Shown here: piece after piece, positions 1-16,592 of the stretch
Layout of the letters: the number at the start of each line of letters is the position of its first letter
Numbering within the stretch: position 1 is the stretch's first letter
Source: Gammaproteobacteria bacterium
GTDB taxonomy: Bacteria > Pseudomonadota > Gammaproteobacteria > Thiohalomonadales > Thiohalomonadaceae
Assembly (NCBI GenBank): GCA_003252455.1
Contig: QKED01000030.1
Span: 1 to 19,417 of the forward strand
DNA length: 19,417 nt
Direction: 5' to 3'
The notes under the pieces: model-generated
What the model was told of the DNA's origin: nothing
Seen by the model: only the letters and a program-made list of their open reading frames with translations
The model's database searches: none
Made by a program: the position numbers and the translations under genes

Positions 1-11
1 CGAGTGCTTGG

Positions 12-664: not shown

Positions 665-747
665 ACGTTGCGTGTGTGCGCTTCCGGTCGGTGGCTAACC
701 ATTTCCGGGTGGGGGTAAGTACCCACTGGGCTCCTTCTCACACTTTC

Positions 748-791
748 GTCGTCACGCCTGTGACGACTTACGAGTGACCAGGCATGCCTGG
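748..791 (-). terminator. Hairpin and 14-bp palindrome downstream of cap3 (candidate operon terminator or operator)
   Basis: gtcgtcac-gcct-gtgacgac (748-767) is an 8-bp stem. ccaggcatgcctgg (778-791) is a perfect palindrome 30 bp after the cap3 stop. No clear U-tract follows, so the terminator assignment is tentative. Confidence 0.3.
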
Positions 792-820
792 CACACCAAG
801 ACATGATCCTAATGAGCGCG

Positions 821-1339
821 TTAAGTGCTGTCGGTAAGAATCCAAGGGTGTACGAACTCGCTAGAGACGCTCCACATACCGAGTCCAGTTACGTCTTCTG
901 CTCGTCCAACTATCAGTATCAACAACGCGCTTATGTTGAGTTGTGAGTTGGCGATAAGGCGACGCATCGCATCGTCATCTAATGTCGAAATTCTAGGGTG
1001 GTCCTCGGCATGGGTGTGCCATTCACCGAGGTACAGCAACCCCTTCATATGGCAATCATCAATGGTTGATTGTGCCGCAGTTGAGTTTGAACGATATCGG
1101 TACCTAGACTGTTCATCACCAGAGTAGGGACCTGACGCCACGGTAACACAGATCTGTCCAGTACTGATGGTCCCAAACAACTGGCCGCCAGCCTCTTTCG
1201 AGCGGAGTGTCGATTGGCGATAACGACCCACGTATTGCACCACCGTCTCAGCTATTAACAGTGATTGATGGATGTCGTGGAGATGACCGATTACCGAACG
1301 GCTCGATCCTGCTTTTACACACGTAGTGGTCATGGCCAC
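821..1339 (-). CDS. cap3: JAB/JAMM (MPN+) metallopeptidase, CBASS Cap3-like
   Basis: The JAMM motif H-x-H-x7-S-x2-D is present as HTHAEDHPRISTLD, with an upstream Glu (KEAGG). The gene is 172 aa and overlaps the upstream E1/E2 gene by 10 nt. It is the last gene of the capV-cdn-cap2-cap3 operon. Confidence 0.85.
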   Translation of the reverse strand: MAMTTTCVKAGSSRSVIGHLHDIHQSLLIAETVVQYVGRYRQSTLRSKEAGGQLFGTISTGQICVTVASGPYSGDEQSRYRYRSNSTAAQSTIDDCHMKGLLYLGEWHTHAEDHPRISTLDDDAMRRLIANSQLNISALLILIVGRAEDVTGLGMWSVSSEFVHPWILTDST

Positions 1340-3039
1340 ACAAACTCCCGTAGAGCATACCTGTCTGTAAAAGTTGTCCGAATTATGCCCCCATTCTCGT
1401 TGACAACATCAGGATTTCCCATCCAAACCCGACGACACGAACTCGGTATCTTGTCAGTAAGCATGTCAATTGCTAGTCCGGCCGCCATGCTTACAGTTGG
1501 GTATAGGTCAATTACCCCGTGAGGTTGGAAGGTATTACCACAACCAGCTTCAACAATGAGCGCAGCTGCCCCTTCTGGCCAATCAGTTAATCTGAAGGTT
1601 GCCAGTTCTTCTTCGTCAAAGCCGATGAGGATAGATGCCTTACCGTATAATAGAATAGCGTGCCCTGCCGCAGCGAATGCCTCGGTCCAGGTACTTAGTA
1701 GCGCGGGGATTCGCTGCAGCCCTCTTCTCCAATGATCTATGGCTGCCTCTCCATCGAAGTCTATTCCGGCAGAGATGACTAGGTCAGCATCTGCAAGCTG
1801 AACAAGCTCCATCGAGCTAAGCTTTTCGAATGATTTTTGGAATGCATGCTGGAAAGTCAAGTGAGGAAACTCACGTCGCAAGTGAGCTTGTAATGCAATC
1901 GCCTTATTTGAGCCTACATTAGAGAACCCAAGCAAGTGTCGCGAAATGTTAGCCGTGTTAAGCCTATCAGGGTCGACGAATATCAATTCACCGATACCTG
2001 CCTGTGCTAAAAGGTGTGCCAAAGTTGCTCCGATCGAACCGCACCCAATGATGACAACCTTCCGGTTCTTAATCAACATATGGCTCGATGCGTGATCTCG
2101 ACCGTGAATCCAAGCTCCATCAACACGTGTGACTATGCAACGCTCGACAGGTCGGCGAACATAGGAGTTGACTATACGTGCTGGTGGTACGCGCGAAATA
2201 TGCCGAAAACCGCGAAGTACGTCACTGCGCTTGGCACTGTTCAATATAACAGCTACGAAGACGGGACCAGTCTCGGTCTTCGCTTCAAATAAAAATGGCA
2301 GACGCAATCCAGGCTTTAGGCACTTGTGGACAGCTTCAGATGGTACGAGTCTGGCAATCTCCACGCCTCTTTCCGGAAATTCATTCGGTGTCCATGGCCG
2401 CAGAAGGCGAAACAGCCAAGTCGTGGATATCTGTTTGTTGTTGGGATTCACGCCTGTGTTGCGAAGCCATCTCGAGAGCACACTTTTGTCATCAGCGATT
2501 ATGTAGTAATTGAATCGCGTGTCAAAAAAATACGCAACTTCGCGCGTCGCTCCGCCAGGAGACACGAGGCTGTGCACTCGTGTGCGTACGGGGCCATTAG
2601 TGGCGCGCTGCGCCCAATAAGCGCTGAACTCACGCTCAAACTCTTTGTCCCGTTTTGATTCAGTGAAACTGAGTAATTCATCTGCATCTTTGAGATGCGC
2701 AACAATCCTATCTACTATCGGAGCAGTATTGCGAGTAGCTCTCAAGCACAATAGACCTAGCGGTTCCACGTGCGGCCAACTGTATTCATTGTCTGCTGCG
2801 GGAGCGATGACCCTGGGTTGTGAATTCGGGAAGGCAGAATCGACAGCCAAGATCAGATGGTCGACTTTCTCATGTTCGAGCACGCCCACTGGAACGCTCA
2901 CCTGCCACCCCAGCTGAAATCCCGCGTGGATCTCCTTTAGCTCGTCGGAAGTTAGTCGCCGCCACTCGTTTGGACGATATTGCTCAAGCCCCTGTTCGAT
3001 CTCACGCGTGATCTGGGTGCGCTGCACTTCTGTCCTCAA
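1330..3039 (-). CDS. cap2: E2/E1 fusion protein (N-terminal UBC-like E2, C-terminal ThiF/MoeB-type E1), CBASS Cap2-like
   Basis: The C-terminal half has a Rossmann motif VVIIGCGSIGATLAHLLAQAGIGELIFVDPDRLNTANISRH, typical of ThiF/E1 adenylation domains. The N-terminal half contains WPHVEPLGLLCL, which resembles the UBC HPN...G.iCL catalytic-Cys motif. The TTG start overlaps the CD-NTase stop (TTGA). Confidence 0.85.
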   Translation of the reverse strand: MRTEVQRTQITREIEQGLEQYRPNEWRRLTSDELKEIHAGFQLGWQVSVPVGVLEHEKVDHLILAVDSAFPNSQPRVIAPAADNEYSWPHVEPLGLLCLRATRNTAPIVDRIVAHLKDADELLSFTESKRDKEFEREFSAYWAQRATNGPVRTRVHSLVSPGGATREVAYFFDTRFNYYIIADDKSVLSRWLRNTGVNPNNKQISTTWLFRLLRPWTPNEFPERGVEIARLVPSEAVHKCLKPGLRLPFLFEAKTETGPVFVAVILNSAKRSDVLRGFRHISRVPPARIVNSYVRRPVERCIVTRVDGAWIHGRDHASSHMLIKNRKVVIIGCGSIGATLAHLLAQAGIGELIFVDPDRLNTANISRHLLGFSNVGSNKAIALQAHLRREFPHLTFQHAFQKSFEKLSSMELVQLADADLVISAGIDFDGEAAIDHWRRGLQRIPALLSTWTEAFAAAGHAILLYGKASILIGFDEEELATFRLTDWPEGAAALIVEAGCGNTFQPHGVIDLYPTVSMAAGLAIDMLTDKIPSSCRRVWMGNPDVVNENGGIIRTTFTDRYALREFVWP

Positions 3040-4076
3040 CCGAATCTACCGCCACCATCATTGCGCCGCGCCGTACCCCCCGATGTGACTTTGATGGCTA
3101 ACGCTTCGCCCCCATCATCGCCACTCCCGTCAGGTACCGAAGTGAAAAAGTCGGTGTCGAACACATCATTCCAGGCTTCCTGCGCTTGCTTCCGAGTGCA
3201 ATCAGACGAATCCAGCGCCTCAAGAGTCTTGATTGCATTGTTCAAGCAATCACGGAAAAATGTGACCTCTTTGTCACCCTCCAAGGCCAGCATGTTGTCA
3301 AGCACCGGGTGTGTTATCTTTGTAGAACTCTGGAGCTTGGCGGAGATAGCTTTCCATGTCTCACGTAGCGCCCTGTCGTCCCGGTTCGAGATGGCTGCAA
3401 AGTGATCTACTACTAGTTTGGTGATGCAGATACCGCTAGCAATCTTGTTTTTCCAGTTAGCTCGACGTGCGAACTTCTTGGTCAATTTCGTGACGCGTCT
3501 CATCTGACTGCCGTCTGACTCACCGGAGTTTAGTTCACCAACAAGGTTATTAAACCAGCGGGTCACAGCCCGAGCGTCTGAGCAGATCCACTCGTCACCG
3601 CTGGCTAACTCGTATTGGTCAACCAAATTGTCATTCTCGTCCTTAGTAGTGACGACGCGGTAGACCGGAATATCGATGTGGTATCCAGCGGCATATACTT
3701 GGCGTACGCAGTTGCGTTTCACAGTGGCCTCTTGCTTGAGGCGGCCGTCCCAAGTCAGTGCGTCGCAAACTCGCTGGCGAGCAGCCAGCGGTGTGAGCGC
3801 AGTATCGGCATCATCCTTGAGGTCGGCAAACGCGAAATATGCACCATCGTCGATGTCGTAGTCGTTGTCATCGTCTTGGACCATAGTACGCATCTGGTAC
3901 GAACCCTGCGACCGGATTTCCTTGGGCTTCGGTCTTTTGGCCTCATTGAGGCCGTTCTCCAAGCGCGTGCGCCCAGCATTCCGTCGCTTGCGCATCTCAG
4001 CTTGTTGCTTGTTCGAAAGTGTAACCTTCTCACTGTGGAAGCCCTTCATTTCGCTGTGGCAGTTAACGTCAGCCAT
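3036..4076 (-). CDS. cdnA: cGAS/DncV-like nucleotidyltransferase (CD-NTase), DncV-like
   Basis: The pol-beta nucleotidyltransferase motif reads QGSYQMRTM...DYDIDDGAYFA (DncV: QGSFQYDTL...DIDDGTYMP). The third acidic residue is in GYHIDIPVY (DncV: THIDVPMY). WICSDARAVTRWFNN matches DncV WINSDPKIVEDWFND. A GGGA Shine-Dalgarno lies 7 nt upstream of the ATG. Confidence 0.88.
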   Translation of the reverse strand: MADVNCHSEMKGFHSEKVTLSNKQQAEMRKRRNAGRTRLENGLNEAKRPKPKEIRSQGSYQMRTMVQDDDNDYDIDDGAYFAFADLKDDADTALTPLAARQRVCDALTWDGRLKQEATVKRNCVRQVYAAGYHIDIPVYRVVTTKDENDNLVDQYELASGDEWICSDARAVTRWFNNLVGELNSGESDGSQMRRVTKLTKKFARRANWKNKIASGICITKLVVDHFAAISNRDDRALRETWKAISAKLQSSTKITHPVLDNMLALEGDKEVTFFRDCLNNAIKTLEALDSSDCTRKQAQEAWNDVFDTDFFTSVPDGSGDDGGEALAIKVTSGGTARRNDGGGRFG

Positions 4077-4088
4077 TTAATTTCCCTG

Positions 4089-5195
4089 TTATTGGTTGGT
4101 GTCTCTTGGTTTCGCATCGGCTAGGGTAGCTCGGAAGGCTTCCATTTCCACTGTACGGGAAGCCCAGGCAAAATCGACATCAGATATGGCCTGACGTGCA
4201 AGTGCGTTTAGCACCTTCGGTCGCGCGTCATCCATGTTATCAAGGTATTCTCGAAGTTCGTTAGATGGGCACTGCGCGGGCAATCGGTACGCGAAGCTTC
4301 CATCGCCCCGAATCTCGGCCAATTTGGCTGCAAGGTAATCGTAGCCCACGGCTTGCGCGTTCAAACTGGCCGCTATAGCCCGAAGCCCAAACTTCCACCC
4401 GCGTGCGCCTCGGTGTAAAGAACGGTTGCTTACCTCTTCGCCGCCTTGTGACGGTAACGTGCCAAGCATGAAAAGGTGAATCGGGCGATGTTCCCCGCGA
4501 TCATTCAGGATCTCGATCGCTTCAATCATTCCGATGAGTCCAGGGTTGTTGGCCCAGAGCCCTCCATCCACGTATGTTGCCGTTGCGCCCTTGCCACCGT
4601 GCTCGTCCAACCTTGCCATCGACCGGAGGATCGGCGCTGCGCTGGTGGCCATGCAAATATCGACTAGCGTCCTCCCATTGTCTCGTCCGTTTAGTCGTTT
4701 GAGATGTTGTGTCTTGAAAACCACCGCAGCATGACGATTGATGTCCAGTGTTGGCACAGCCAGTGCTATACCTCGCGAATCGTACATAGACTTGACGGTC
4801 ATATTGCCAAAAATAGTAGCGAGGGTACTCCGCAATGCATCATCGCCTTTGCGCAAACCGACGCCAACTCCCTTCAGGAACAGGCCGATAAATGGAAGTG
4901 ATCGCGCCCATTGCATAGGAAAAATCTTGGGGCCAGCCTTGGCATACAGAGATTGGATGTCTGGTAGTGGCACACCGGCAACTAATCCACACGCTACGAT
5001 CCCACCAGTACTGGTACCTACGATTAGGTCGAAAGCTGTGCCAATGTCTAGGGACTGTTGACGGTTTAGACTATCTTCAATGCGGTCTTCAAAGGTAGCG
5101 AGATAAGCCGACTGATATGCACCACGCATACCGCCACCGTCCAGACACAGTACTCGAAATGGTTTCGTTTCTGTCACGTCGCTCACTACTATCAA
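4089..5195 (-). CDS. capV: Patatin-like phospholipase, CBASS effector CapV-like
   Basis: The oxyanion motif LDGGGMRG and the nucleophile motif GTSTGG (GxSxG) are both present. The gene is the first in the operon and starts at a TTG. 368 aa. Confidence 0.88.
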   Translation of the reverse strand: MIVVSDVTETKPFRVLCLDGGGMRGAYQSAYLATFEDRIEDSLNRQQSLDIGTAFDLIVGTSTGGIVACGLVAGVPLPDIQSLYAKAGPKIFPMQWARSLPFIGLFLKGVGVGLRKGDDALRSTLATIFGNMTVKSMYDSRGIALAVPTLDINRHAAVVFKTQHLKRLNGRDNGRTLVDICMATSAAPILRSMARLDEHGGKGATATYVDGGLWANNPGLIGMIEAIEILNDRGEHRPIHLFMLGTLPSQGGEEVSNRSLHRGARGWKFGLRAIAASLNAQAVGYDYLAAKLAEIRGDGSFAYRLPAQCPSNELREYLDNMDDARPKVLNALARQAISDVDFAWASRTVEMEAFRATLADAKPRDTNQ

Positions 5196-5295
5196 CTCAA
5201 AAGCCGCGAATACTCTGTGTTATGAGGAATCGGTCTAGAAACACCTGAATCCGGCAGGAAGACCTGGCAGTTCGCCATCTAGCATCCACTCCACC
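5196..5295 (-). promoter_or_regulatory. Intergenic region upstream of capV (putative CBASS promoter) and island/chromosome junction
   Basis: A 100-bp non-coding gap immediately 5' of capV. GC composition changes across it. I could not assign -35/-10 boxes with confidence. Confidence 0.3.
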
Positions 5296-5676
5296 CTACT
5301 TAGCCAACGCCACAGGCAGATACGGACTCTCCGGATTCACACTCAACTGCTGTGTAGCCGGATGCAACACCAAGTCCATCATCTCCATCGGCACCGCCCC
5401 CATGAGCGGCTCATCACCGAACACCAACGCCGAGAGGTCACAATAACGGTCACCAAAGTGGACACGCAGCGGTCCCACCATCGGTACCCGCTTGCGCGTA
5501 CCGTCGGCGAGAATCACCTCCCGCGTACTGAACTCCTCGGTGTCGTACCCGAGTTGCAAGGCCATGTGCTGTGGGATCACCATAAACACAGCCCCTGAGT
5601 CGACCAGCGACCGGACCTCGATTCGCCGACCGATAAAGCTGTTTTCCAGTGTTAAATTCGCGTAGGTCAAACCCAT
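5296..5676 (-). CDS. Retropepsin-like (clan AA) aspartic protease, paralog B
   Basis: 126 aa. The active-site motif is LVDSGAVFMV. The C-terminal stretch ALVFGDEPLMGAVPMEMMDLVL has the retropepsin character. About 45% identical to the adjacent paralog. Confidence 0.75.
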   Translation of the reverse strand: MGLTYANLTLENSFIGRRIEVRSLVDSGAVFMVIPQHMALQLGYDTEEFSTREVILADGTRKRVPMVGPLRVHFGDRYCDLSALVFGDEPLMGAVPMEMMDLVLHPATQQLSVNPESPYLPVALAK

Positions 5677-5716
5677 CAGTGGCCCCCTCTACAAAAGCCG
5701 AGCAACTACAACCTAA

Positions 5717-6097
5717 TCACTTCACCCGAGCATGCGGAATATTCGGACTCGCCGGGTCCACCCCCAGCTCCCTCCGCGCGGGATTGACCACCAGATCCAT
5801 ATCCTCCATCTGCACAGCCCCGAGCAGCACCTCATCACCCAGCACCAGAGCCCCGACATAACAGAAGCGGTCACCAAAGCGGACCTTGATCGGCCCGACA
5901 TAGGGCACCAGCAAACTCCGGCCATCGGCAACGCTCACTTCACGCTCAGATTCCGTCTCAAGTTGAAGCTGATTGGCGATGTGCTGCGGGATGCAGAGCA
6001 TCAATGCCCCCGTATCCGCTGGTGCCTGGGTACGGATAGGTGCCAGCGCTGCATCACGCGGGTTGCTCAGCTCGATGTTGGCGAACACATGACCCAT
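5717..6097 (-). CDS. Retropepsin-like (clan AA) aspartic protease, paralog A
   Basis: 126 aa. The active-site motif is ADTGALMLCIPQH. ALVLGDEVLLGAVQMEDMDLVV parallels the downstream paralog. Confidence 0.75.
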   Translation of the reverse strand: MGHVFANIELSNPRDAALAPIRTQAPADTGALMLCIPQHIANQLQLETESEREVSVADGRSLLVPYVGPIKVRFGDRFCYVGALVLGDEVLLGAVQMEDMDLVVNPARRELGVDPASPNIPHARVK

Positions 6098-6163
6098 GTC
6101 CGAATCCTCAGGTATACGCGTAGAGCCGAGTATAGGGTCGTGAAGGTGCCGATGTCATGCCCG

Positions 6164-9100
6164 TCACTCCTTCTTCCCCCGAATCCCCTTCAACCCCTGC
6201 TCAATCTGCTGCAACCGCTTCATCACCGCATCGCTCACAGAGTTCTTCTCGTGCAGCGAGCGCAGCATCGGCTTGAGCGAGAGGTCGACCACCTCGATGA
6301 GCTGTTCAACCAGGGTCTGCATGGCGGGCAGGGGTTCGTTGACCAGGTTGATCTCCGGCTGTTTGGCGCTCAGTGCCTCCAGCGTCTTGTTCAGCCGCTG
6401 CAGGTAGAGCACGGTGGCGCGGGCGTTGTAGCTCTCTTTCTCCAGGCGGGCGTCGTGGCCTTCGCTCATGCTGCGGGCGGCCTGATTGAGGGCCTCCAAC
6501 TGCTGCCCAAGCCCGGCGAGCTGGCCGGCGACGCGGGTGGCGGGGTCGTTTTCGTCGCCGATGACGGAGGCACGGCGGCGGTACTCCTGGGTGATGGCGT
6601 GCCAGCGCGCGGCCTGCTCGGGGGTCTGTTTGCCGCGCAGGGCGGCGAGCTTGAGCAGGTTCTCTTCGGCGCCGGTGGTGAGGGTCTGCGCCTCGCCGAT
6701 GTAGTGGTCGTCGATCAGCGCCTCCAGTTCGGCGTCGTTCATCACCGCCACCACCTTCTCGGCCATCTTGTTCATGTTGCGGTAGCTGCCCTGGAGCTTG
6801 AACGGCGGCTCGGTGCGGTAGGCGTCGTGCTGGCTGGCGGATTCGATGTAGGCGAGGTTGACCTTGAGCACGGTCTGCTGGATGCGCAGCAGTTTCTTCA
6901 GAACGTCGACGATCTCGGCCAGCTCGGCGGCGGAGTAGCCGTGGCCCAGTTCGTTGCTGGAGATCTCCTCGCCCTGGGCCATGCGGATTAGTTTGTAGAG
7001 GTCCTGCATGTCGCGGGTGGCGAGCGGGGCGAGGGTGGCGTTGGAGGTGAGGGCGTTCTCGATGTAGGAGAGGGCGAAGGCCTGCTCCTTGCCGCCGAGG
7101 ACGTCGCCGAGGTTGTAGATGTCGGCGCGGTTGGCGAGCATGTCGGGGATCTTGAACGCCTCGCCGGACTCGGTGTAGGGGTTGCCCGCCATGATGATGC
7201 AGAAGCGCTTGCCGCGCAGGTCGTAGCTGCGGCTGCGGCCGCGCCAGACCCCCTCGACACGGCGGGTGCCATCGGCCAGGGAGATGAACTTCTGCAGGAA
7301 CTCGGGGTTGGTGTGCTGGATGTCGTCGAGGTAGAGCATGACGTTGTTGCCCATCTCCAGCGCCAGGTTGAGCTTCTCCAGCTCCTGTTTGGCGGCGGCG
7401 CCGGGGGCCTCGACGGGGTCGAGGCCGGTGACGGCGTGGCCGATGGTGGGGCAGTTGATCTTCATGAAGATGAGCCCGAGGCGGTGGGCGGTGTACTCCA
7501 TGAGGGTGGTCTTGCCGTAGCCGGGCGGGGAGATGAGCAGCAGCATGCCCATCAGGTCGGTGCGCTTGGCGTCGCCCAGCGCCCCCATCTGCTTGGCCAG
7601 GTTGTCGCCGATGAGTGGCAGGTAGACCTCGTTGATCAGCTGGTTGCGCACGAAGCTGGTGAGTGGGCGCGGTTTGAACTCCTCAAGGCGTAGCGCCTCG
7701 CGCGCCTGCTCGGCCACCTCGCGGCGGCTCTGGCGGTAGGCGCGGAAGGCGGGCACGCGGGTGTGGCCGAACTGCTCCAGCCGCTGCAGGAACTCGTCCA
7801 GCTCCAGCACCAGGGTGCGCTCGACGATACGCGGGTGCTGGCCGAGCAGGCCGCCCACCTCGGCGCGGGTGAGGGTGGCGCTGGCCTGGTGGTCGAGGCG
7901 CCCCTCGGTGAGCAGCAGGGCGGTGGCGGCGGGGATGCGGCGGATGGCGTCCTCGCCCGCCCCGGTATGGCGCAGATACTGCTCCAGCCAGGCGCTGACC
8001 AGTTGGACCTGGTCGGCGAGGGACTCCTCCAGCGCCTCCAGGTCCTCCTCGAACTCGGCGCGGTGTCCGGCCTGCTCCAACTCGCGGCGCAGCCCGGCGA
8101 CCAGCTCCTCGGCCTCGTGGCTGGTGGTGAGGCGCAGCGGGTGCTGGCGCAGCTCGGCGATGAGATAGGCCCCGGCGAGGCGCTGCTCGCCCGCGTCGAA
8201 GTCGAGGCGCATCTCGCCACAGAAGGCGGCGAGCAGGCCGACCGCCTCCTCCACCAGCGCCAGCTCGGCGCGGTGGGCACCGAAGCGTCCGGCCAGTTGG
8301 CCGAGGCTGCGGGCACGGCGTTGCAGCCCCTGCGGCCCCTGCTCGGCCCAGTAGAGCCAGGCGAGGGCGCGCGGACGTGGGCCGAAGCGCAGCAGCCCGG
8401 CCCCGGCGTGCAGGTCGAGCAGGGCGGCGAGGATGGCGGCGGCGTCGACGTCGTGCACGCCGCGCTCGTAGCCCTCTTCGTAGCGCTCGGCGGCGGCCCT
8501 ACGCACCCGTTCGCGCAGGGCGTCGGGGTCCGCCGCCAGGGTGTGCAGCTCGGCCAGGGTGTCGCTGGCCTCGGCGGCGAACAGCAGGCTGGCGGCCAGG
8601 TACTCGGCGCGGTAGACGCTGGCGTCTTCCGATACGCGCTCCTGCTCCCAGTAGTCGCGGAAGGCGGCGAGGCGTTCGTCCTCCACCGGCTCGAAGAAAT
8701 CGGTGCCGGTGAGGTGCAGACTCATCCTGCCGTCGACCGGCAGCAGGGTGAGGTCGAGCGGGCTGGTGGTGACACTGAAGCGGTGCTTGCCCAGGCGGAT
8801 GACGTTGCCGCCCTCCTCGAAGATCTCGCTGCGGTCGCGCAGGGTGCGGCTCGACTGGTCGCGGGCCGACTTGAGGCGCGCCTCCACATCGTCGGCACGT
8901 ACGCTGTCGCCCAGTTCGCGCAGCCGTTCGACCAGCTCGCGCAGCTTGAGGATCATCGGATCGGCGGCAAAGTAGGCGTTGATGGCGTCCTGGTCGGAGA
9001 AGCCCTCGACCCTGCGCTCGACCCCCTGCAGGATGCGGTCGGCGGCGGCGGCCATGTTCTGCGCGCGGCGCTGGCGCTCCTCGTTGAGCTGCTGTTTGCG

Positions 9101-11371
9101 CGCCTCGAAGCTCTCGTAGACCTCCTCGCGCTTGGCGGTGAGCTGGGTCAGGTAGTCGTCGAACTCGCTGAAGCGCCCCTCCAGCTCTTCGAGTTGCAGC
9201 AGCAGGCGGGCGAGCTGTTCGTCGCACGCCTCCGGGGTGTCGGCCTGGGCCAGGGCGGCGGTGACCGACTGGCCGTAGAGCTTGAACTCGGCGGCGAACT
9301 CGGCCACCGACTCGTGGGAGCGCAGCCCCTTGCGCTTGAGCTTGAGTTCGGCGCGGGTACGGTTGAGGCGGGCGAAGACCTCGCCGACCCGCTCCAGGAT
9401 GGTGGTGCGCTGGGTGGCGTCCTCCACCTTGAGGCCGCCGAGCACCTCGTTGAGCAGCTCCAGCCCCTCCGCCTGCTGCTCCAGCGCCGCCTCGATGGGG
9501 TCGAGTTCGACCACCTTTTCCACCGCCTCGATGGCCGCGGCCTGGGCCTCCAGCTGCTGGTGGTAGGCGTCCAGCGCGTCGTCGCGCAGCAAAAAGTCGA
9601 CGCTCTGGCGCGAGAGGCGCTCGAAGGCCTCGACCACCTCCTGCTCCAGTTCGTCGAGACGTTTCAGGTCGATGCGGCGCAGGTCGCGCAGGGTGATGAG
9701 CTGGCCGCGCTGACCGCGCAGGTCGGCCAGGGCGGTGATGAAGGGGTCGATGCTGTGCCACGACTCCGGGCGTGTCTTGCGCAGCAGCTCCTGCTGGGCG
9801 AGGGCGGCCTGCTCCAGGGCGGTTGCGGCCTGCTTGCGCTGGGCGGCGACCTTCTCGAACTCTCCGAGCACCAGCTCGGCAGTGGCGCGCACCGCCTTGA
9901 CCGCCGGCAGCAGCGGGCCGGTCTCGGCCTGGTCGAGCCAGTGGTAGTGGTCGGCCATGCGCGTGCAGGCGGCGATGAGCGCCTCGTAGACGCCAACGGT
10001 GGGGCTGGCGCTGGTGACCATGCGGCGGATGGAGAGGGCGTCGGAGATGCCGCGCACCAGGTCGGCGTTGCCGATGCGCGCCAGCGGCGAGCCGTCGGTG
10101 GGGCGGGCGGCGGCGTGCTCGTCGCTCATGTAGGGCGTTTGCCAGATCTGCATCGGGTGGACGCGGGTCGGCTCATCTGAGTCGTAGCGGAAGACCACCA
10201 TGCGCCCGTCGTCGAACAGCGAGTAGCCGTGGCAGACGATGGGGTTGGCCAGCTGTTTGCGGATGAGGTTGTAGGAGAGCAGCTCCTGGCGCCCCTCCAT
10301 GTAGTGGTAGAAGAGGTAGAGCACATCCTCGCCGTTGGGCGAGCGGATGGTGCGCTTGTATTCGAGGTCGGTGATGTCGCCGTCGAACTGCTTGTGCTCG
10401 CCGCTCACCAGGTAGTAGCCGCCGGGGAAGATCAGGCCGTGCCCCTCGGGCAGCTGCACGCAGGCCTGGCCGATGGCGTCGATGCGCACCACCTGCTCGG
10501 TGCGGCTGTTAAACACCAGGTGGCGCCACACCTCCTCGCGATAGGGGCGGATGCGCAGCAGGATCAGCTCGCCGAGGTCGGCGTACTCGATCTGCGCGTC
10601 GGCCAGGGACTGATTGGCATCCTCCACCGGCTCTCGGTAGATGCCGAGGCCCGACTCTGTGTTGTTCTCCACCTTGATGGTGAGGTCGCCGCCCACGGTC
10701 TCGACGAACAGCCGCTCCTGGATCGAGACGTGGGGAAACTTGCCCGCCACATGATTATCGCGCGTGGTGGCGGTCCACTCGAAGTCGTGGGCGCGCGGGA
10801 AGGTGTGGTCGCGCTCGCCACGATTGTCGATGTAACTGACCTTGCCGTCGCGGTCGATGCCCCAACGGAAGACCTTGAAGTCGGCGCGGCGGCTGCCGGT
10901 CTGGAACACCGCGAGCAGCTTGCCGTCGAGCACACGCAGGGCGGTGAGGTAGGCCTCCTTGTAGTAGGCGTAGAGTTCGCGGAACTCCTTAACGAACTGC
11001 GGGTGGTCGAGGAAGGAGTCTTTCAGCGGCACCGACTCCACCTCGTAGCCGCCCTCGGCCTCCACCAGGCGGTTGAGGGAGAAGACGTCGCTCACCCGCG
11101 TCTCGGTCTTGAGGCCGATGAAGACGTTGTAGCCGAACAGCAGCAGCCCGCCCACCTGCACCATGTCGCGTGGCACGCAGTTGTTCTCGGTGCGCAGGCG
11201 CAGGGCACCGGTGACCGCCAGCTCCGTACCGCCGAAGAGTTTGAGGCGCTTTTCGTTGAGGCCGCTGGCGAGCTTGGCCAGCTCGCCGCCCTGGGTGGTG
11301 AGGCGCTGGCTCAGGAGTTCGTAGGCGCCGTCCTGGTCGAGGGTGGGCTCGGTGTTGTTGGCGTCGGTCAT
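6164..11371 (-). CDS. Giant (1735 aa) coiled-coil protein with one MoxR/AAA_5-type AAA+ ATPase module
   Basis: An uninterrupted 5.2-kb ORF at host GC. Walker A is LISPPGYGKTTL and Walker B is VMLYLDDIQ. The downstream segment RFCIIMAGNPYTESGEAFKIPDMLANRADIY follows the MoxR/dynein-like pattern ATQNP...LP.A.LDRF. Residues about 450-1200 are E/A/L/R/Q-rich and heptad-like, so predicted coiled coil. The N-terminal 440 aa is aromatic and beta-rich. Confidence 0.85.
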   Translation of the reverse strand: MTDANNTEPTLDQDGAYELLSQRLTTQGGELAKLASGLNEKRLKLFGGTELAVTGALRLRTENNCVPRDMVQVGGLLLFGYNVFIGLKTETRVSDVFSLNRLVEAEGGYEVESVPLKDSFLDHPQFVKEFRELYAYYKEAYLTALRVLDGKLLAVFQTGSRRADFKVFRWGIDRDGKVSYIDNRGERDHTFPRAHDFEWTATTRDNHVAGKFPHVSIQERLFVETVGGDLTIKVENNTESGLGIYREPVEDANQSLADAQIEYADLGELILLRIRPYREEVWRHLVFNSRTEQVVRIDAIGQACVQLPEGHGLIFPGGYYLVSGEHKQFDGDITDLEYKRTIRSPNGEDVLYLFYHYMEGRQELLSYNLIRKQLANPIVCHGYSLFDDGRMVVFRYDSDEPTRVHPMQIWQTPYMSDEHAAARPTDGSPLARIGNADLVRGISDALSIRRMVTSASPTVGVYEALIAACTRMADHYHWLDQAETGPLLPAVKAVRATAELVLGEFEKVAAQRKQAATALEQAALAQQELLRKTRPESWHSIDPFITALADLRGQRGQLITLRDLRRIDLKRLDELEQEVVEAFERLSRQSVDFLLRDDALDAYHQQLEAQAAAIEAVEKVVELDPIEAALEQQAEGLELLNEVLGGLKVEDATQRTTILERVGEVFARLNRTRAELKLKRKGLRSHESVAEFAAEFKLYGQSVTAALAQADTPEACDEQLARLLLQLEELEGRFSEFDDYLTQLTAKREEVYESFEARKQQLNEERQRRAQNMAAAADRILQGVERRVEGFSDQDAINAYFAADPMILKLRELVERLRELGDSVRADDVEARLKSARDQSSRTLRDRSEIFEEGGNVIRLGKHRFSVTTSPLDLTLLPVDGRMSLHLTGTDFFEPVEDERLAAFRDYWEQERVSEDASVYRAEYLAASLLFAAEASDTLAELHTLAADPDALRERVRRAAAERYEEGYERGVHDVDAAAILAALLDLHAGAGLLRFGPRPRALAWLYWAEQGPQGLQRRARSLGQLAGRFGAHRAELALVEEAVGLLAAFCGEMRLDFDAGEQRLAGAYLIAELRQHPLRLTTSHEAEELVAGLRRELEQAGHRAEFEEDLEALEESLADQVQLVSAWLEQYLRHTGAGEDAIRRIPAATALLLTEGRLDHQASATLTRAEVGGLLGQHPRIVERTLVLELDEFLQRLEQFGHTRVPAFRAYRQSRREVAEQAREALRLEEFKPRPLTSFVRNQLINEVYLPLIGDNLAKQMGALGDAKRTDLMGMLLLISPPGYGKTTLMEYTAHRLGLIFMKINCPTIGHAVTGLDPVEAPGAAAKQELEKLNLALEMGNNVMLYLDDIQHTNPEFLQKFISLADGTRRVEGVWRGRSRSYDLRGKRFCIIMAGNPYTESGEAFKIPDMLANRADIYNLGDVLGGKEQAFALSYIENALTSNATLAPLATRDMQDLYKLIRMAQGEEISSNELGHGYSAAELAEIVDVLKKLLRIQQTVLKVNLAYIESASQHDAYRTEPPFKLQGSYRNMNKMAEKVVAVMNDAELEALIDDHYIGEAQTLTTGAEENLLKLAALRGKQTPEQAARWHAITQEYRRRASVIGDENDPATRVAGQLAGLGQQLEALNQAARSMSEGHDARLEKESYNARATVLYLQRLNKTLEALSAKQPEINLVNEPLPAMQTLVEQLIEVVDLSLKPMLRSLHEKNSVSDAVMKRLQQIEQGLKGIRGKKE

Positions 11372-11444
11372 GGATTAGGTCTCCGCGGAGGCCGAGTGGG
11401 TGAAAGAATTAGTGCCCGCGTAGGACGGGCGTGGAGGCTATGGC

Positions 11445-12029
11445 TCACTCGGTGGACTCCGTGTCAGGCAGCTCCAGCCACGCGCTGACCGCGAAGGGTT
11501 GCTCGGGGCAGAGCGGCAGAGTCAGCTCGTCGCCTTGGCCGAAGATCGCGGGACGGGGGTAACGCCCCTCCTCCAGCCGGTAGTGCTCGATGTAGTTCTC
11601 CAGCGGGTCGACGATGAGGTAGTCGGGTACACCGAAGCGCTCGTAGAGGGCGAGTTTGTCGCGCCTGTCGCGTGTGGCGCTGCCGGGGGAGAGGATCTCG
11701 ATGACGAGGTTGGGGGCACCCGCGTGATATTGGCCGTTGACCCTACGCGACGGGTCGCAGCTCACGAGTATGTCTGGTTGGACGACTGTAGATTCGTCGA
11801 ACACAACATCGACTGGCCCTATTAAAACCTCGCAGACTCGGCCCATCCGCCGGAGGGCGAGGTCGAGTGAGACGGCGATCCGTCCAACCCTCAATTGGTG
11901 ACGAATGGAGGGTGTCGGAAAAGAGGGCAAAATCACTCCATTGATCACCTCGCGCGGGGTCTCGTCCTTCCCGCTCAGATAGTCGGCGACGGTATACCGT
12001 CCTTCAGCTAGCGCTTCGTGTGCGCACAT
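11445..12029 (-). CDS. Uma2-family (DUF820) PD-(D/E)xK putative endonuclease, copy 2
   Basis: 194 aa. VQPDILV...APNLVIEILSPGSATRDRRDKLALYERFGVPDYLIVDP matches the Uma2 pattern (PD..., EhLSPS, ...Y...GV.EYWhVD). Confidence 0.8.
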   Translation of the reverse strand: MCAHEALAEGRYTVADYLSGKDETPREVINGVILPSFPTPSIRHQLRVGRIAVSLDLALRRMGRVCEVLIGPVDVVFDESTVVQPDILVSCDPSRRVNGQYHAGAPNLVIEILSPGSATRDRRDKLALYERFGVPDYLIVDPLENYIEHYRLEEGRYPRPAIFGQGDELTLPLCPEQPFAVSAWLELPDTESTE

Positions 12030-12089
12030 GGGTGGCCTCCTGAGCGTGACCCCGGATGGCGCTGCGCCTATCCGGGCTACGGTGCTGGC

Positions 12090-12680
12090 TCATATCTCGA
12101 TCCCGCTCTCTTCTCGCTGACCAAACCAGGCGTGGATGGCCTGGGGCAGACCGGGGAGCAGCGCCAGTTCGAGGGGCGTGTCCGGGGTGAAGAGCATCGG
12201 ACGCGGATAACGCCCTGCCACGAGCCGGTGGTGGGCGAGGTAGTTGTTGTGGGGGTCGACTACCAGATACTCCTGCACGCCGAACTGTTCGTAGAGCTCC
12301 AGCTTCACCCCCAGGTCGCGCACGGCGGTGGCGCTGCCGAGCACCTCGACCACCAGTTCCGGGGCCCCGTCGAAGTAGCGTCCGTCGCGCACCCTGTCGC
12401 GTCGGCGGTCGACGATCAGGTCGGGTTGCAGCAGGGTCGCCTCGCCGAGCACCAGCTCCACCGGTCCCAGGCCGATATAGGCCGTCGACAGCGGGCCGTC
12501 CGTGGCCAACTGCAGACCGAGAAAGTGCTGATAGATGGCGAACACCACCTCCTGATGACGCACCTCCTGCGTGAAGGGGAGAGTGGATTGCACCCCGTCG
12601 ACCAGCTCGCAGTCGGGCGAACCGGGCCAACCGAGGTAGTCGGCGACGGTGAAGCGCACCGCGTGGCTGAGGTCGGGCAT
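12090..12680 (-). CDS. Uma2-family (DUF820) PD-(D/E)xK putative endonuclease, copy 1
   Basis: 196 aa. LQPDLIV...APELVVEVLGSATAVRDLGVKLELYEQFGVQEYLVVDP. Paralogous to the downstream copy. Confidence 0.8.
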   Translation of the reverse strand: MPDLSHAVRFTVADYLGWPGSPDCELVDGVQSTLPFTQEVRHQEVVFAIYQHFLGLQLATDGPLSTAYIGLGPVELVLGEATLLQPDLIVDRRRDRVRDGRYFDGAPELVVEVLGSATAVRDLGVKLELYEQFGVQEYLVVDPHNNYLAHHRLVAGRYPRPMLFTPDTPLELALLPGLPQAIHAWFGQREESGIEI

Positions 12681-12759
12681 CGGTATCTCCCGTACGGAGT
12701 GCGATCCGGTCGGTGTTTATCGCGAAGTGGAGTACACGCCGAGGCGTGTACTCCAGGAG

Positions 12760-14745
12760 TTACTCCAGGCCGAGCTGCTTGGCCGCGGCGAGCAGGCGCT
12801 CCACCTTGGCCTTCTCATCCCCATCAGAGCCCTGCATCAGCTTGCCGAGGAAGGCGGTGAGGGTAAGGTTCTTCGCTGCCTCGGCGTCGATGGCCGGGTT
12901 GGTCAGCACGTCCTTCAGGTCCTGGCGCAGGCTGGCGTCGCCGTCGATGTAGTCACCGAAGATCTGCTTGGCGGTGTCGCCCTTCTCCAGGAAGCCGTCG
13001 AGCGACTTGGTGACCGAGACCGCCTTGACGAAGCGGTCGAAGAAGGCGCCGTCGCCGCCGATGATCTCGAACTTGGCGTTCTTCAGTGCGCTGCCGAGGA
13101 GCTGGGCCTGCTGCTCGGCCACGGCGCGCTGGGTGAGCAGCGCCTCGCCCTGCAGGGCGCGCACGTGTTCGAGCTTCATGCGGAACTGCTCGTAGGCCTC
13201 GCCACGGTCGCCCATCTGCTCCATCGCGGCGGTCTCGCTCTCCAGCACCTTGACCCGCGCCATGCCGATCTGCTCCTCGCCCTCGGCCTCGGCCTGCTTC
13301 TGCTCGCGCAGCACGCGCGCCTGGGCGGTGCCCTCTTTCTCCAGGGCGACGGCACTCGCCTCTTTCACGCGGGCGGCAGCAAGGCCATGCGCGGCGGCCT
13401 CGGCCTGGGTGCCCTCGGCGATGCGGATCTTGGCGGCGGCCAGCTTGTCGGCGGCGGCCAGCTCGGCCTCGGCCAGGGTGAGCTGCTCACGGGCCTTGTG
13501 CTTGGCGGCCTCCTCGGCGGCCTCGGCTGCCTTGATCGACTCGACCAGGTTCTGCTGCGCGGCGGCCTCGGCCTCGATCACCTTGGCCTTGCGGCTGCGG
13601 TCCGCCTCGGAGACGATGCGCAGCTCCTTGATGCGCTCCTCCTCCTCGGCCACGGTCTTGTCCACGGCGGTACGCTCGCGGATCACCTCGGCGATGGCCT
13701 TCTTCTCCTCCTCCAGCGCCTTCTCCTTGGCGATGCGCTGCAGCTCCACCTCGCGTTCGCGGGCGATCGCCTCCAGGGCGCGGGCGCGCTCGACCTTCTC
13801 CACCTCGATGGCCACGGCGCGGGCGCGGTTCTGCGCCGCCACCTCGGTCTCGCGCAGCTTGTTCTCCTCCATCACCGCGAGGGACTCGTCGGTCTTGATG
13901 CGCGCCTGCTCGGAGCGCAGGCGCTCCTCGCTGCGCACCTTCTCGGTCTCGGCCTCTTCGCGGGCGCGCAGGGATTCGATCTCGCGCTGCTGCTTCGCCT
14001 CGGCGTCCGCCTGCTGGCGTTCGAGCTCCAGGATCGCCTCACGCGCCTGCACATCCTTCTTCTTGATCTGCATCTCTTCGTCGCGGGCGATCTCGTTGGT
14101 CTGGATGTTCTGCGTGGCGGTGAGCTGGGTGATCTTGCGGATGCCCTGGGCGTCGAGGATGTTCTTCGGGTCGAGGCTGGAGAGGGGGGTCTGCTCCAGG
14201 TAGTCGATGGCGGCGTCTTCGAGCACGTAGCCGTTCAGGTCCTTGCCGATGAGGGCGATGATCTGGTCGCGGAAGCTGTCGCGCTCCTTGTACAGGTCCT
14301 CGAAGTCCATCTGCTTGCCGACGGTCTTCAGCGCCTCGGAGAACTTGGCGTTGAACAGCTCTTCGAGGGTCGACTGGTCGGAGGCGCGGGCGCAGCCGAT
14401 GGCCTGGGCCACCTTGAGCACGTCCTCCTGGGTCTTGTTCACACGCACGAAGAAGGAGACGCGGATGTCGGCGCGGATGTTGTCGGAGCAGATCAGCCCC
14501 TCCTTGCCGCGACGGTCGATCTCGATGGTCTTGAGCGAGATCTCCATCACCTCGGCCTTGTGGATCACCGGGTAGACGACCATGCCGGTGAAGGTGACCA
14601 CCGGCTCCTTGCGCATAGTGTTGACGATGAGCGCCTTACCTTGTTCCACCTTCTTGTGGAACATGAATACCAGCAGGGCGATACCGCCGACGATGAAGAC
14701 GAGGATGCCGAGCACGCTCAGGATCACATACCAGATGGAACTCAT
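12760..14745 (-). CDS. yqiK: Flotillin-family SPFH-domain protein (YqiK-like)
   Basis: 661 aa. An N-terminal TM helix is followed by an SPFH/band-7 domain (KALIVNTMRKEPVVTFTGMVVYPVIHKAEVMEISLKTIEI...). A long E/A/R/K-rich flotillin-type coiled coil follows. It sits immediately downstream of the YqiJ-like gene. Confidence 0.9.
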   Translation of the reverse strand: MSSIWYVILSVLGILVFIVGGIALLVFMFHKKVEQGKALIVNTMRKEPVVTFTGMVVYPVIHKAEVMEISLKTIEIDRRGKEGLICSDNIRADIRVSFFVRVNKTQEDVLKVAQAIGCARASDQSTLEELFNAKFSEALKTVGKQMDFEDLYKERDSFRDQIIALIGKDLNGYVLEDAAIDYLEQTPLSSLDPKNILDAQGIRKITQLTATQNIQTNEIARDEEMQIKKKDVQAREAILELERQQADAEAKQQREIESLRAREEAETEKVRSEERLRSEQARIKTDESLAVMEENKLRETEVAAQNRARAVAIEVEKVERARALEAIAREREVELQRIAKEKALEEEKKAIAEVIRERTAVDKTVAEEEERIKELRIVSEADRSRKAKVIEAEAAAQQNLVESIKAAEAAEEAAKHKAREQLTLAEAELAAADKLAAAKIRIAEGTQAEAAAHGLAAARVKEASAVALEKEGTAQARVLREQKQAEAEGEEQIGMARVKVLESETAAMEQMGDRGEAYEQFRMKLEHVRALQGEALLTQRAVAEQQAQLLGSALKNAKFEIIGGDGAFFDRFVKAVSVTKSLDGFLEKGDTAKQIFGDYIDGDASLRQDLKDVLTNPAIDAEAAKNLTLTAFLGKLMQGSDGDEKAKVERLLAAAKQLGLE

Positions 14746-14763
14746 TGCGGGTCTCCTTGAGTT

Positions 14764-15396
14764 TTAGGGTCCGTCGTAGGGGGCCACCGCATAAGTGTCG
14801 GCGGCGGAGTCGTAGTCGATGATGAGCAGGGGGTCGCCACGCTTGAGGCCGTTCTCCTCGATATGGCAGGTGACGCTGAGGATGAGGTCGTTACCGCCCT
14901 GTTCATAGCGCGCCTGTCCATGCGTCTGGCCGACGCTGCCGGAGGTGAGGGTACAGAGTTTACCCACCAGTGTCTGTTTGCTGTCGGCGCCGTGCACGGC
15001 GAAAAACGGGCGCAGTGGCACGACGGCACGCCCGGCCAGCGGCAGGGCGATGACGAAGGCGGCGATGCCGACCGCCAAACCGGCCATGCCGCCGAACGGG
15101 CCCGGCAGCCAGGGCAGCAGGTAGAGGTTGGCCAGCAGGCTGAGCAACCAGGCGATGAGCACGACAAAGCTGAAGATGATGGCGATGGGCACCCCGGTGA
15201 GGCCGAGGGCGGCCATCATCCCGGCGAGGGTGTCGCCACGCCACAGGGGGGCACCCTCCAGGTCGATGTCGGCCCCGAACAGGTCGATGTCGAAGAAGCC
15301 GAGGATGACGAAGAGCCAGTAGATCAGCACCAGCGCCAGCAGGGCCGAGTAGAGGCCGGTGGGGAGGGCAATCAGGGCGTGAAGAAAGGGCTCCAT
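14764..15396 (-). CDS. yqiJ: YqiJ/NfeD-like inner-membrane protein (flotillin partner)
   Basis: Multiple hydrophobic helices. The C-terminal soluble part (GKLCTLTSGSVGQTHGQARYEQGGNDLILSVTCHIEENGLKRGDPLLIIDYD) resembles the NfeD OB-fold. The ORF is open to 15489. I prefer the ATG at 15396 (MEPFLH...), which has a GGAG 6 nt upstream. Confidence 0.65.
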   Translation of the reverse strand: MEPFLHALIALPTGLYSALLALVLIYWLFVILGFFDIDLFGADIDLEGAPLWRGDTLAGMMAALGLTGVPIAIIFSFVVLIAWLLSLLANLYLLPWLPGPFGGMAGLAVGIAAFVIALPLAGRAVVPLRPFFAVHGADSKQTLVGKLCTLTSGSVGQTHGQARYEQGGNDLILSVTCHIEENGLKRGDPLLIIDYDSAADTYAVAPYDGP

Positions 15397-15501
15397 GGGC
15401 GTCTCCATGCTTTGTGCGGGGCCGTTAGCGCCGGGCGCTGACCGGCCATCAGGCCACAGCCCCGGGAGGGCGTCAAGCACGCCCCGCACAAAAGGCGTGC
15501 A

Positions 15502-16437
15502 CTAGCCTCGTTGGGCGAAGGCAAGGGAGAAGGCGCGTGGCCCGACGTTCACCGCGGCCGTGGTGCTCATCAGGCTGAGCAGCAGGTCGACCCCGCGCGC
15601 CTGGGCGGCGTTGACGAAGTCGATATAGTGACTATTGGCGCGGATCTCCTCCAGGTCACCCCCATAGCTCATGGCCACCAGTGGGGTGACGAGCCCCTGG
15701 TCGATCGCCTCCAGGGTGCGGGCAAAGAGGCGCTGCAGGGCGGCATCGAAGCCGGCGGCCTTGAACGCGGGTTCGGTGACACCGCGATAGCACTGCACCA
15801 CCGGCTTGACGTTGAGCAGGTTGCCCACCTTGTAGCTGAACCAACCGACGCTGTTGTCGCCCTTCTCACGGGCACGCGCGTGCAGGTAATAGAGGTCACG
15901 CGGTACGACATAGGCGTAGACCTGGTCGGCCAGGGCGGCGAGGCGCGGCTCCAGCCGCTCCAGCTCCAGCCCCTCGTCGCGCAGCAGGCGTACCGCCTCG
16001 TGGGCGATGATCGCCTGGCCGGTAAACATGGTGGTGCTGTTGAACACGCGCAGGCGAAACTGGCTGGAGCCGGTCACGTCGCGGTGCAGCGCCTTGAGCT
16101 TGGGCAGCTTGATCAGCGCCGCTTCGCGGACGTTGTCGTAGATCTTGCTGCGCTCGGCGTTGATGGTGATCACCTGGGTGCCGTCGTAGTGGTGCAGCAG
16201 CTCCTCTTCGAGGATGGTGCTCATCTCGTCCACCGTCAGCGGGCTGGTCTGCACCAGGCCATCCTTGTGGTTGCCATAGTAGGCGTAGAAATCGAGGGTG
16301 GTCTTGGGGTCGCGAAAATCGCGGAAGATCTGCCCGTCGATCAACACCGTGATAGGTAGTACCTTGACGTTGTTCGCGACGATAAACGGGTGTGGCAGGT
16401 CGCAGGCCGAATCCACGGCGATACAGTAGTTGGGCAT
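15502..16437 (-). CDS. degV: DegV-family (EDD-fold, fatty-acid-binding) protein
   Basis: The N-terminal motif YCIAVDSACDLP matches the DegV signature (IAIVTDStaDLP). The ORF is open to a GTG at 16464. The preferred ATG at 16437 has an AAGGAC Shine-Dalgarno 6 nt upstream. Confidence 0.8.
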   Translation of the reverse strand: MPNYCIAVDSACDLPHPFIVANNVKVLPITVLIDGQIFRDFRDPKTTLDFYAYYGNHKDGLVQTSPLTVDEMSTILEEELLHHYDGTQVITINAERSKIYDNVREAALIKLPKLKALHRDVTGSSQFRLRVFNSTTMFTGQAIIAHEAVRLLRDEGLELERLEPRLAALADQVYAYVVPRDLYYLHARAREKGDNSVGWFSYKVGNLLNVKPVVQCYRGVTEPAFKAAGFDAALQRLFARTLEAIDQGLVTPLVAMSYGGDLEEIRANSHYIDFVNAAQARGVDLLLSLMSTTAAVNVGPRAFSLAFAQRG

Positions 16438-16501
16438 GCTCAGGTCCTTAGGCCTTATCGGCACAGACCGGGCGGACAGCGCGACCCGCTGAGCGCCTCG
16501 G

Positions 16502-16534
16502 GCGATATGTTACGAAGTATGTGATAAATATCGC
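16502..16534. promoter_or_regulatory. Inverted repeat GCGATAT-N19-ATATCGC upstream of degV (possible operator)
   Basis: 7-bp arms (7 of 8 if extended), lying 65-97 bp upstream of the degV ATG in the 128-bp dctM-degV gap. Confidence 0.25.
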
Positions 16535-16592
16535 TATTGAACCGAAACCGGTGGGGAAATGATACAGGGACTTTACGTACCGCAATCTGCCG

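Follow-up and report, generated by a model that had tools for sequence, protein, structure and literature searches.

A giant DUF3686-family AAA+ ATPase encoded alongside a flotillin and a YqiJ/NfeD-like membrane protein: domain anatomy, conserved linkage and possible roles

The function of bacterial flotillins and other SPFH proteins, and in particular the opening and turnover of their cage-like assemblies, is a long-standing question, which is raised afresh by a gene in contig QKED01000030.1 of a gammaproteobacterium of the Thiohalomonadaceae (assembly GCA_003252455.1). The stretch of DNA analyzed here, hereafter the window, comprises positions 1 to 19,417 of this contig (19,417 nucleotides) and contains an uninterrupted open reading frame (ORF) of 1735 codons at 6164-11371, evident from both the ORF list and its translation, which encodes a giant AAA+ ATPase of the DUF3686 family close to the gene for a flotillin. 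What might so large an ATPase do beside a flotillin? With a probability of roughly 0.55, we favor the explanation that it is the cytoplasmic subunit of a membrane module composed of a YqiJ/NfeD-like protein, a YqiK-type flotillin and the DUF3686 protein itself, and that it would remodel this module. An ATPase encoded with a flotillin and an NfeD-like partner offers an experimental handle on flotillin function. Coordinates are those of the window and refer to the minus strand unless otherwise stated.

The ATPase gene (6164..11371) is complete, with its stop codon at 6164-6166, full-length homologues and Pfam matches, and no transmembrane segment is predicted in its product. The guanine-plus-cytosine (GC) content of the region is 65-73%, at which long ORFs also arise by chance, and an opposite-strand ORF of 805 codons overlaps the gene; the choice between such frames is decided by homology, by which the 6164-11371 frame is the real gene. 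The plus-strand frame 7763-10180 and the other long antisense frames (up to 805 codons) over the ATPase and flotillin genes were rejected as artefacts of high GC content, their translations being rich in Gly, Ala, Leu and Arg and turning up among the related loci solely as shadows cast by conserved genes. In a search of 5.8 billion proteins, at least 6077 of the 8000 candidates scored were relatives, and the family combining DUF3686, DUF7902 and an AAA+ domain comprises more than 6000 clusters at 90% identity. The best 120 homologues, of 1698-2044 residues, are collinear with the window protein at 53-61% identity and 93-100% query coverage, the nearest among the matches listed being 61% identical, and an alignment of 14 sequences from several phyla has a mean column identity of 59%. 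At least 600 species-representative genomes, belonging to at least seven phyla or classes, carry the ATPase. The DUF3686 domain is restricted to this architecture, being found at the N-terminus of proteins of ~1600-2000 residues; in all but a few of 150 representatives it begins within ~50 residues of the N-terminus, and the complete proteins among them span 1590-2036 residues. Two candidate Rosetta-stone fusions, P0205 (NfeD1b_N with DUF3686) and P0237 (a flotillin C-terminus with DUF3686), were discarded as frame-shift or gene-calling artefacts because their long Arg/Pro/Gly-rich stretches resemble out-of-frame translation.

Upstream of the ATPase gene the window encodes a YqiK-type flotillin of 661 residues (12760..14745), which is recognized by its Pfam Band_7 match, an N-terminal transmembrane anchor, an SPFH domain and a long helical region rich in Glu and Ala. 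It is 28% identical to Escherichia coli YqiK (E=2e-36) and ~85 residues longer, the additional length lying within the C-terminal half; the N-terminal transmembrane segment is its only one, the bulk of the protein is predicted to be cytoplasmic, and its helical region shows no insertions or deletions among ATPase-linked orthologues. The flotillin gene is preceded in turn by that for a polytopic YqiJ/NfeD-like membrane protein of 241 residues (14764..15489) with three or four hydrophobic segments and a C-terminal β-domain, and the profile of this family aligns collinearly with E. coli YqiJ (hhalign probability 83.5%, E=8e-6).

This arrangement is widely conserved. Relatives of the ATPase occur in at least 600 species-representative genome stretches, and 80 loci from Gamma-, Beta- and Zetaproteobacteria, Myxococcota, Actinomycetota and Acidobacteriota were examined. 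In 75 of these, the ATPase gene is preceded on its own strand by a flotillin homologue; the remaining five have at most 358 base pairs (bp) of upstream sequence and are hence uninformative. The suggestion of an earlier note on this DNA, made from the sequence alone, that the ATPase works with the adjacent flotillin is thereby borne out at the genomic level, with the flotillin directly upstream in every one of the 75 informative loci, across at least five phyla. The gap between the two genes has a median of 178 bp and is below 1 kb in 72 of the 75, and a YqiJ-like homologue precedes the flotillin in 69-70 of the 80 loci. Across 2701 locus pairs, the identity between two ATPases tracks that between the corresponding flotillins (Pearson 0.87), and the genes are therefore inherited as a unit. 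On the whole, these genomic comparisons strongly support an operonic link between ATPase and flotillin.

Besides the flotillin and YqiJ, the only neighbors that recur in the 80 loci are PspA with YjfI, phospholipase D (PLD) and TelA. In 15 loci the genes for PspA and a CesT-like DUF2170/YjfI protein immediately precede yqiJ. TelA (toxic anion resistance) is encoded ~1 kb downstream of the ATPase gene and in the same orientation in nine loci from Xanthomonadales, and a gene of the PLD family takes that place in five others; all these accessory genes are membrane-stress genes. The loci with TelA or PLD downstream include L039, L041, L044, L048, L056 and L058, among others. Large plasmids carry the family too, including plasmids of Bacteroidota and Deinococcota. 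The Deinococcus plasmid has the triad only, and a Hymenobacter plasmid encodes a Tir-type chaperone, PspA, a protein annotated as DUF1449 at the position of yqiJ, a hypothetical protein of flotillin size and a "DNA repair ATPase", the last being a DUF3686 protein with 44% identity to the N-terminal domain of the window protein. The Pseudomonas fluorescens megaplasmid pQBR103 (locus L081; NC_009444.1, 84437-97641) has a ten-gene same-strand cluster, which encodes YjfI, PspA, a rhomboid protein, DUF2491, DUF350, DUF1190, a glutathionylspermidine synthase-like protein, a hypothetical protein, an SPFH protein and a "DNA repair ATPase". This cluster adds polyamine-related genes (those for DUF2491, DUF350, DUF1190 and the glutathionylspermidine synthase-like protein) and unites two classes of operon that were kept separate in PMC11237479.

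The same operon and architecture were described in silico by Ravi et al., 2024 (PMC11237479), who traced the operon through the gene neighborhoods of PspA and tied it to PspA-based membrane dynamics. In their description it encodes a YqiJ/YuaF membrane protein, a Band-7/flotillin protein and an ATPase combining a β-propeller, a coiled coil and an AAA domain, with a CesT/Tir-PspA dyad and PLD present in some operons; abbreviated operons are widespread and were proposed to act with PspA encoded elsewhere (PMC11237479). The Hymenobacter operon matches this description gene for gene, and because it fits and ends in a DUF3686 protein, the DUF3686 family can be equated with the ATPase of that study. 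Hence, the earlier note's impression of an unrecognized architecture holds in that the family is not a characterized one, no full-length match to a characterized family having been found, but it does not hold in the sense of an uncatalogued architecture, given Pfam DUF3686 and DUF7902, a name in the NCBI Prokaryotic Genome Annotation Pipeline (PGAP) and PMC11237479. Both the family and its link to flotillin are already in Pfam and the literature of 2020-2024; the window protein is a fairly divergent new member of a catalogued family, and its architecture is not new. It shares with the ATPases of the catalogued DUF3686 operons the order of domains, the invariant motifs and the place after flotillin and YqiJ, whereas the window is peculiar in the insertion of Uma2 genes, the lack of a PspA/CesT dyad and a downstream antiphage operon, and otherwise differs in nothing essential. 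Literature searches found no paper naming DUF3686 or PF12458, nothing that combines "DNA repair ATPase" with flotillin or SPFH, and no experimental work on the ATPase; papers on SO1377, on the SPFH proteins of P. aeruginosa and on SPFH evolution leave it unmentioned.

The anatomy of the protein was studied with AlphaFold2 models built in two pieces, each from an alignment of 41 homologues picked for diversity, and the first of these (residues 1-600) has a predicted local distance difference test score (pLDDT) of 88.7 and a predicted template-modeling score (pTM) of 0.81. Pfam PF12458 (DUF3686) matches residues 30-477 over the entire profile (1-448 of 448; E=8e-210; 697 bits against a cutoff of 25). 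In the model a helix at residues 16-46 precedes a β-domain of ~28 strands, mostly with pLDDT above 90, which forms the core of DUF3686 (residues 52-411; 10139..11218). Its top Foldseek matches are all β-propellers, namely the DCAF1 WD40 domain, Elp1, the prolyl oligopeptidase propeller and PON1, with E-values of 3e-7 to 1e-5 and template-modeling (TM) scores of at most 0.40. The β-rich N-terminal domain foreseen in the earlier note is thus present in the model, and of the propeller and jelly-roll folds offered there, it is a propeller-like one to which the matches point in part. The models support the view that the DUF3686 domain is a divergent β-propeller-like domain of a binding type. PDB sequence searches, whether run with the protein alone or with a profile of 14 sequences, gave no match to the N-terminal or middle domains and aligned only the P-loop region, to classical AAA proteins and RuvB.

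For residues 450-1200, where an SMC- or myosin-like coiled coil of ~800 residues had been proposed, the model gives a different picture, with ~25 separate helices of which the longest have 58 and 51 residues. The region is broken by two β-elements and a globular helical domain, and elevated values of a crude heptad score are limited to ~520-760. Following the N-terminal domain is a helical rod or bundle (residues 417-850; 8822..10123), with modeled helices of 10-58 residues and no insertions or deletions across 14 diverse homologues, that includes the DUF7902 domain (Pfam PF25472; residues 598-681; 9329-9580; E=1.7e-29), the sole family found when the separate middle and C-terminal fragments were searched against Pfam at E<=5. 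The first β-element is a small unit of modeled strands with the motif GxHRFSV (residues 857-895; 8687..8803), in which G861, H863, F865 and V867 are invariant. It is succeeded by the globular all-helical domain (residues 921-1154; 7910..8611), which is delineated by the model and by invariant columns and has no Pfam match even at E<=5. Within this domain lies an invariant loop, E966-G-Y-E-R-G-x-H-D-x-D976, whose clustered Glu, His and Asp side chains could bind a metal or ligand or form an important interface. The somewhat longer segment 963-977 (8441-8485) reads R-Y-x-E-G-Y-E-R-G-x-H-D-x-D-A, with its specified positions invariant or almost so. The second β-element (1161-1190) and a long connecting helix (1191-1227) then lead in the model into the ATPase domain (together 7691..7891). 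In the helical regions the majority residue occupies 65-68% of positions and the length is constant from phylum to phylum, without insertions or deletions, as would be expected of helical bundles folded into a rod rather than of a coiled coil acting as a spacer.

The α/β-core of the AAA+ domain spans residues 1244-1445 (7037..7642), as defined by Pfam matches, by the folds of NorQ and CbbQ and by its motifs. The Pfam matches, at residues 1277-1400, are weak and above threshold: AAA_5 scores 29.2 bits (cutoff 22), yet the generic AAA profile also passes (25.8 bits), while an NCBIfam search of the protein gave nothing above noise. The entire protein has a single P-loop, at residue 1284, with the Walker B motif 65 residues on in the same domain. 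This is in keeping with the single MoxR/AAA_5 ATPase of the earlier note, which had further placed it near the C-terminus; it does lie in the C-terminal part, though not at the very end, being followed by ~290 mostly helical residues. These form a lid and a C-terminal helical extension (residues 1446-1735; 6167..7036), delimited by the model and by conservation, which are variable over the final ~125 residues and modeled with low confidence over the final ~100.

Invariant residues across the family include those of the Walker A motif SPPGYGKTT (7505-7531), the Walker B motif MLYLDD with D1349 and D1350 (residues 1345-1352; 7316-7339), sensor 1 N1397 (within 7175-7195), a candidate arginine finger R1415 (within 7121-7144) and a candidate sensor 2 R1531 in the conserved LQGSYRNM (6773-6796), and the model also contains a pre-sensor-1 β-hairpin (residues 1371-1384; within 7202-7270). 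The nucleotide-handling motifs are unchanged in up to 101 homologues; SPPGYGKTT, YLDDIQH, MAGNPYTE, MLANRAD and QGSYRNMNK match invariant columns of 14-101 homologues, and no part of the protein is better conserved than the AAA+ core, where 56% of columns are invariant. In Foldseek comparisons of the C-terminal piece, dynein heavy chains are top by E-value with a TM-score of only 0.12, and among single-domain matches NorQ and CbbQ, both MoxR proteins, rank best (E 2e-6 to 1e-5; NorQ E=2e-6 with a target-normalized TM-score of 0.59, CbbQ TM-score 0.60), with RuvB, Lon, ClpA and MCM slightly below them. The sequence and model together predict that the ATPase carries one catalytically complete MoxR-like AAA+ module. 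The canonical Walker B motif of AAA+ proteins is hhhhDE. In 101 family members the motif is invariably LYLDD, with DD in place of the MoxR-type DE, which suggests a slow hydrolysis cycle or switch-like behavior.

Under the favored explanation, the AAA+ module would oligomerize to a hexamer, as is usual for AAA+ proteins, with the propeller and rod docking the ATPase on the cytoplasmic side of the flotillin/YqiJ assembly. ATP binding and hydrolysis might then serve to assemble, open, disassemble or load the SPFH scaffold, with the PspA polymers encoded alongside it in some lineages as a further target, or to load and unload PspA or clients, the likely setting being an envelope or membrane-stress response. 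Precedents exist for the components: SPFH proteins occur with NfeD partners (PMC13086221) and with PspA (PMC8581546), and in HflK/C-FtsH an SPFH protein is paired with an AAA+ machine (PMC13220708). The proposed relationship would be akin to that of Vps4 to ESCRT-III and of FtsH to HflK/C. The resemblance to the latter lies in the combination of an SPFH scaffold and an AAA+ machine, together with the NfeD-type partner common in SPFH operons. However, FtsH is embedded in the membrane and has a protease domain, whereas the window ATPase is soluble and without one, and the HflK/C cage is periplasmic, whereas the window ATPase would meet the flotillin on the cytoplasmic side. The comparison is accordingly to be taken as an analogy in a possible mode of working and not as membership in that system.

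Several observations weigh against this explanation. The evidence for a partnership of ATPase and flotillin is genomic throughout; the yqiJ-yqiK operons of E. coli and Shewanella are without the ATPase, and flotillins in general therefore do not require it. In the window itself, the pair of Uma2 genes splits the flotillin from the ATPase and widens the gap between them to 1388 bp against the median of 178 bp, and a scan of the operon for promoters and terminators, which bears on co-transcription, gave counts not above those in shuffled sequence. On the structural side, the C-terminal model (residues 560-1735) has a pLDDT of 82.7 and a low pTM of 0.61, the segment from strand 2 to helix 2 (NCPTIGHAVTGLDPVEAP) shows no obvious aromatic-hydrophobic-Gly motif of the pore-loop kind, and the DD of Walker B may mean that the protein is not an unfoldase but hydrolyzes ATP slowly or acts as a nucleotide switch. 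A more specific form of the favored explanation is less probable: the protein might be the first ATP-driven machine dedicated to a flotillin scaffold, in which long rigid arms on a hexameric MoxR-like ring would grip or cap the cytoplasmic flotillin/YqiJ cage in order to open, close or dismantle it or to feed PspA and client proteins into it. If this were true, SPFH microdomains would be actively regulated compartments in hundreds of bacterial species.

Of the other explanations, two likewise assign the ATPase a membrane-associated or chaperone role and differ in its substrate. PspA and Vipp1 are bacterial relatives of ESCRT-III. The ATPase might be a Vps4-like disassembly enzyme acting on PspA, with the flotillin and YqiJ serving only as a membrane platform, and like Vps4 it is an AAA+ ATPase genetically tied to membrane-remodeling polymers, PspA and a CesT/YjfI-like protein being encoded upstream of yqiJ in 15 of the 80 loci, on pQBR103 and in Hymenobacter. 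The discovery of the operon through PspA neighborhoods and the possible use of PspA encoded elsewhere by abbreviated operons (PMC11237479) are consistent with such a role, as is the recruitment of PspA to the Bacillus subtilis membrane by an SPFH protein (PMC8581546). We consider it unlikely, as PspA is missing from most loci, including the window, and the AAA+ module does not appear to belong to the classical clade of Vps4: similarity to NVL, Rix7 and p97 spans only ~35-65 residues around Walker A, and the MIT-like matches in the window ATPase are indistinguishable from generic helical bundles. The structural affinities of the module, namely a core fold with NorQ and CbbQ as the best single-domain matches (target-normalized TM-scores of 0.5-0.6), an AAA_5 match above cutoff and a pre-sensor-1 hairpin, could alternatively indicate a MoxR-type chaperone that matures a client or inserts its cofactor, in the manner of NorQ/NorD, CbbQ/CbbO and RavA/ViaA, with the flotillin merely marking the site of the client. 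This appears quite improbable given that MoxR proteins have ~250-500 residues and a VWA partner, whereas the window ATPase is six times as large, with ~1240 residues N-terminal to the module and DD instead of DE in Walker B; no gene for a VWA domain with a metal-ion-dependent adhesion site is present in the window or among the conserved neighbors of the 80 loci, nor does any client gene beyond flotillin and YqiJ recur there, and the structure scores of RuvB, Lon, ClpA and MCM are only slightly lower.

The setting of the gene in the window, between a type II operon of the cyclic-oligonucleotide-based antiphage signaling system (CBASS) and Uma2 genes that match the PADLOC candidate PDC-S03, raises the further notion of an anti-phage or conflict system, with the giant ATPase as the sensor of infection and the flotillin and YqiJ as effectors at the membrane. 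The presence of the family on large plasmids and a weak PADLOC match of the helical region to LmuB (24.9 bits) would agree with this. Still, such a role seems less likely again, since none of the defense genes of the window recurs in the 80 related loci, the CBASS operon differs in GC content (~50% against 65-73% for the flotillin-ATPase operon) as expected of a separate insertion, and PADLOC-DB 2.0 has no model for the N-terminal domain, the AAA+ module, the flotillin or the YqiJ-like protein. Moreover, identities of 53-61% across phyla without insertions or deletions are unlike those of fast-evolving defense genes, and a scan of viral contigs found no relatives of the ATPase. Least plausible of all, and by our estimate very improbable, is a role in DNA repair as an ATPase akin to SMC, SbcC and RecN, as implied by the PGAP name "DNA repair ATPase" and the Pfam label "ATPase involved in DNA repair" for DUF3686. 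Apart from these names and the weak match to the SMC-like LmuB, the long and mostly helical center recalls SMC, Rad50, SbcC and LmuB, and a knock-out of the Shewanella flotillin SO1377 raised spontaneous mutation, but the authors of that study blamed iron and oxidative stress (PMC1468410), and the operon in question is one without the ATPase. In contrast to the SMC-type proteins, the window ATPase has no N- and C-terminal ABC half-heads and no hinge or zinc hook, its P-loop and Walker B motif reside in one C-terminal AAA+ domain, and its helices of at most 58 residues bear no comparison with antiparallel arms of 300 residues. Pfam and NCBIfam detect in it no match to SMC_N, AAA_23 or Rad50 and no nuclease, DNA-binding or hinge domain, and its conserved partners are all membrane proteins. 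We infer that the name was propagated because low-complexity helical sequence resembles that of proteins such as SbcC; as a label on thousands of proteins it lacks support and misleads.

Among the remaining genes of the window, the CBASS operon and the Uma2 genes are insertions unrelated to the flotillin-ATPase operon. The type II CBASS operon (821-5195) is complete, encoding a Cap3-like JAB protein (821-1339), a Cap2-like E1/E2 protein (1330-3039), a CD-NTase (3036-4076) and a patatin-like phospholipase effector (4089-5195), and because of its deviant GC content it is probably a horizontally acquired island, inserted separately. Upstream of the ATPase gene, the two tandem and diverged Uma2-family nuclease genes of the PD-(D/E)XK type (11445-12029 and 12090-12680; Pfam Uma2) are a foreign insertion and lie outside the flotillin-ATPase system. 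Between the ATPase and the CBASS operon are two tandem paralogues of a 126-residue retropepsin-like aspartyl protease (5296-5676 and 5717-6097; Pfam gag-asp_proteas and Asp_protease_2; active-site motifs DSG and DTG), with an intermediate GC content of 56-60% and a single, very weak match to PADLOC PDC-M52B. Upstream of the YqiJ-like gene are those for DegV (15502-16464) and for DctQ and DctM of a TRAP transporter (16593-18522). The CBASS, Uma2, retropepsin and DegV genes are all absent from the 80 related loci. Near the right end of the window, where the GC content is ~57%, a plus-strand ORF of 162 residues (18765-19253) has a match to the AP2 DNA-binding domain below threshold (21 bits, cutoff 33) and is overlapped by an antisense ORF (18708-19139); this region may represent the edge of another mobile or foreign segment.

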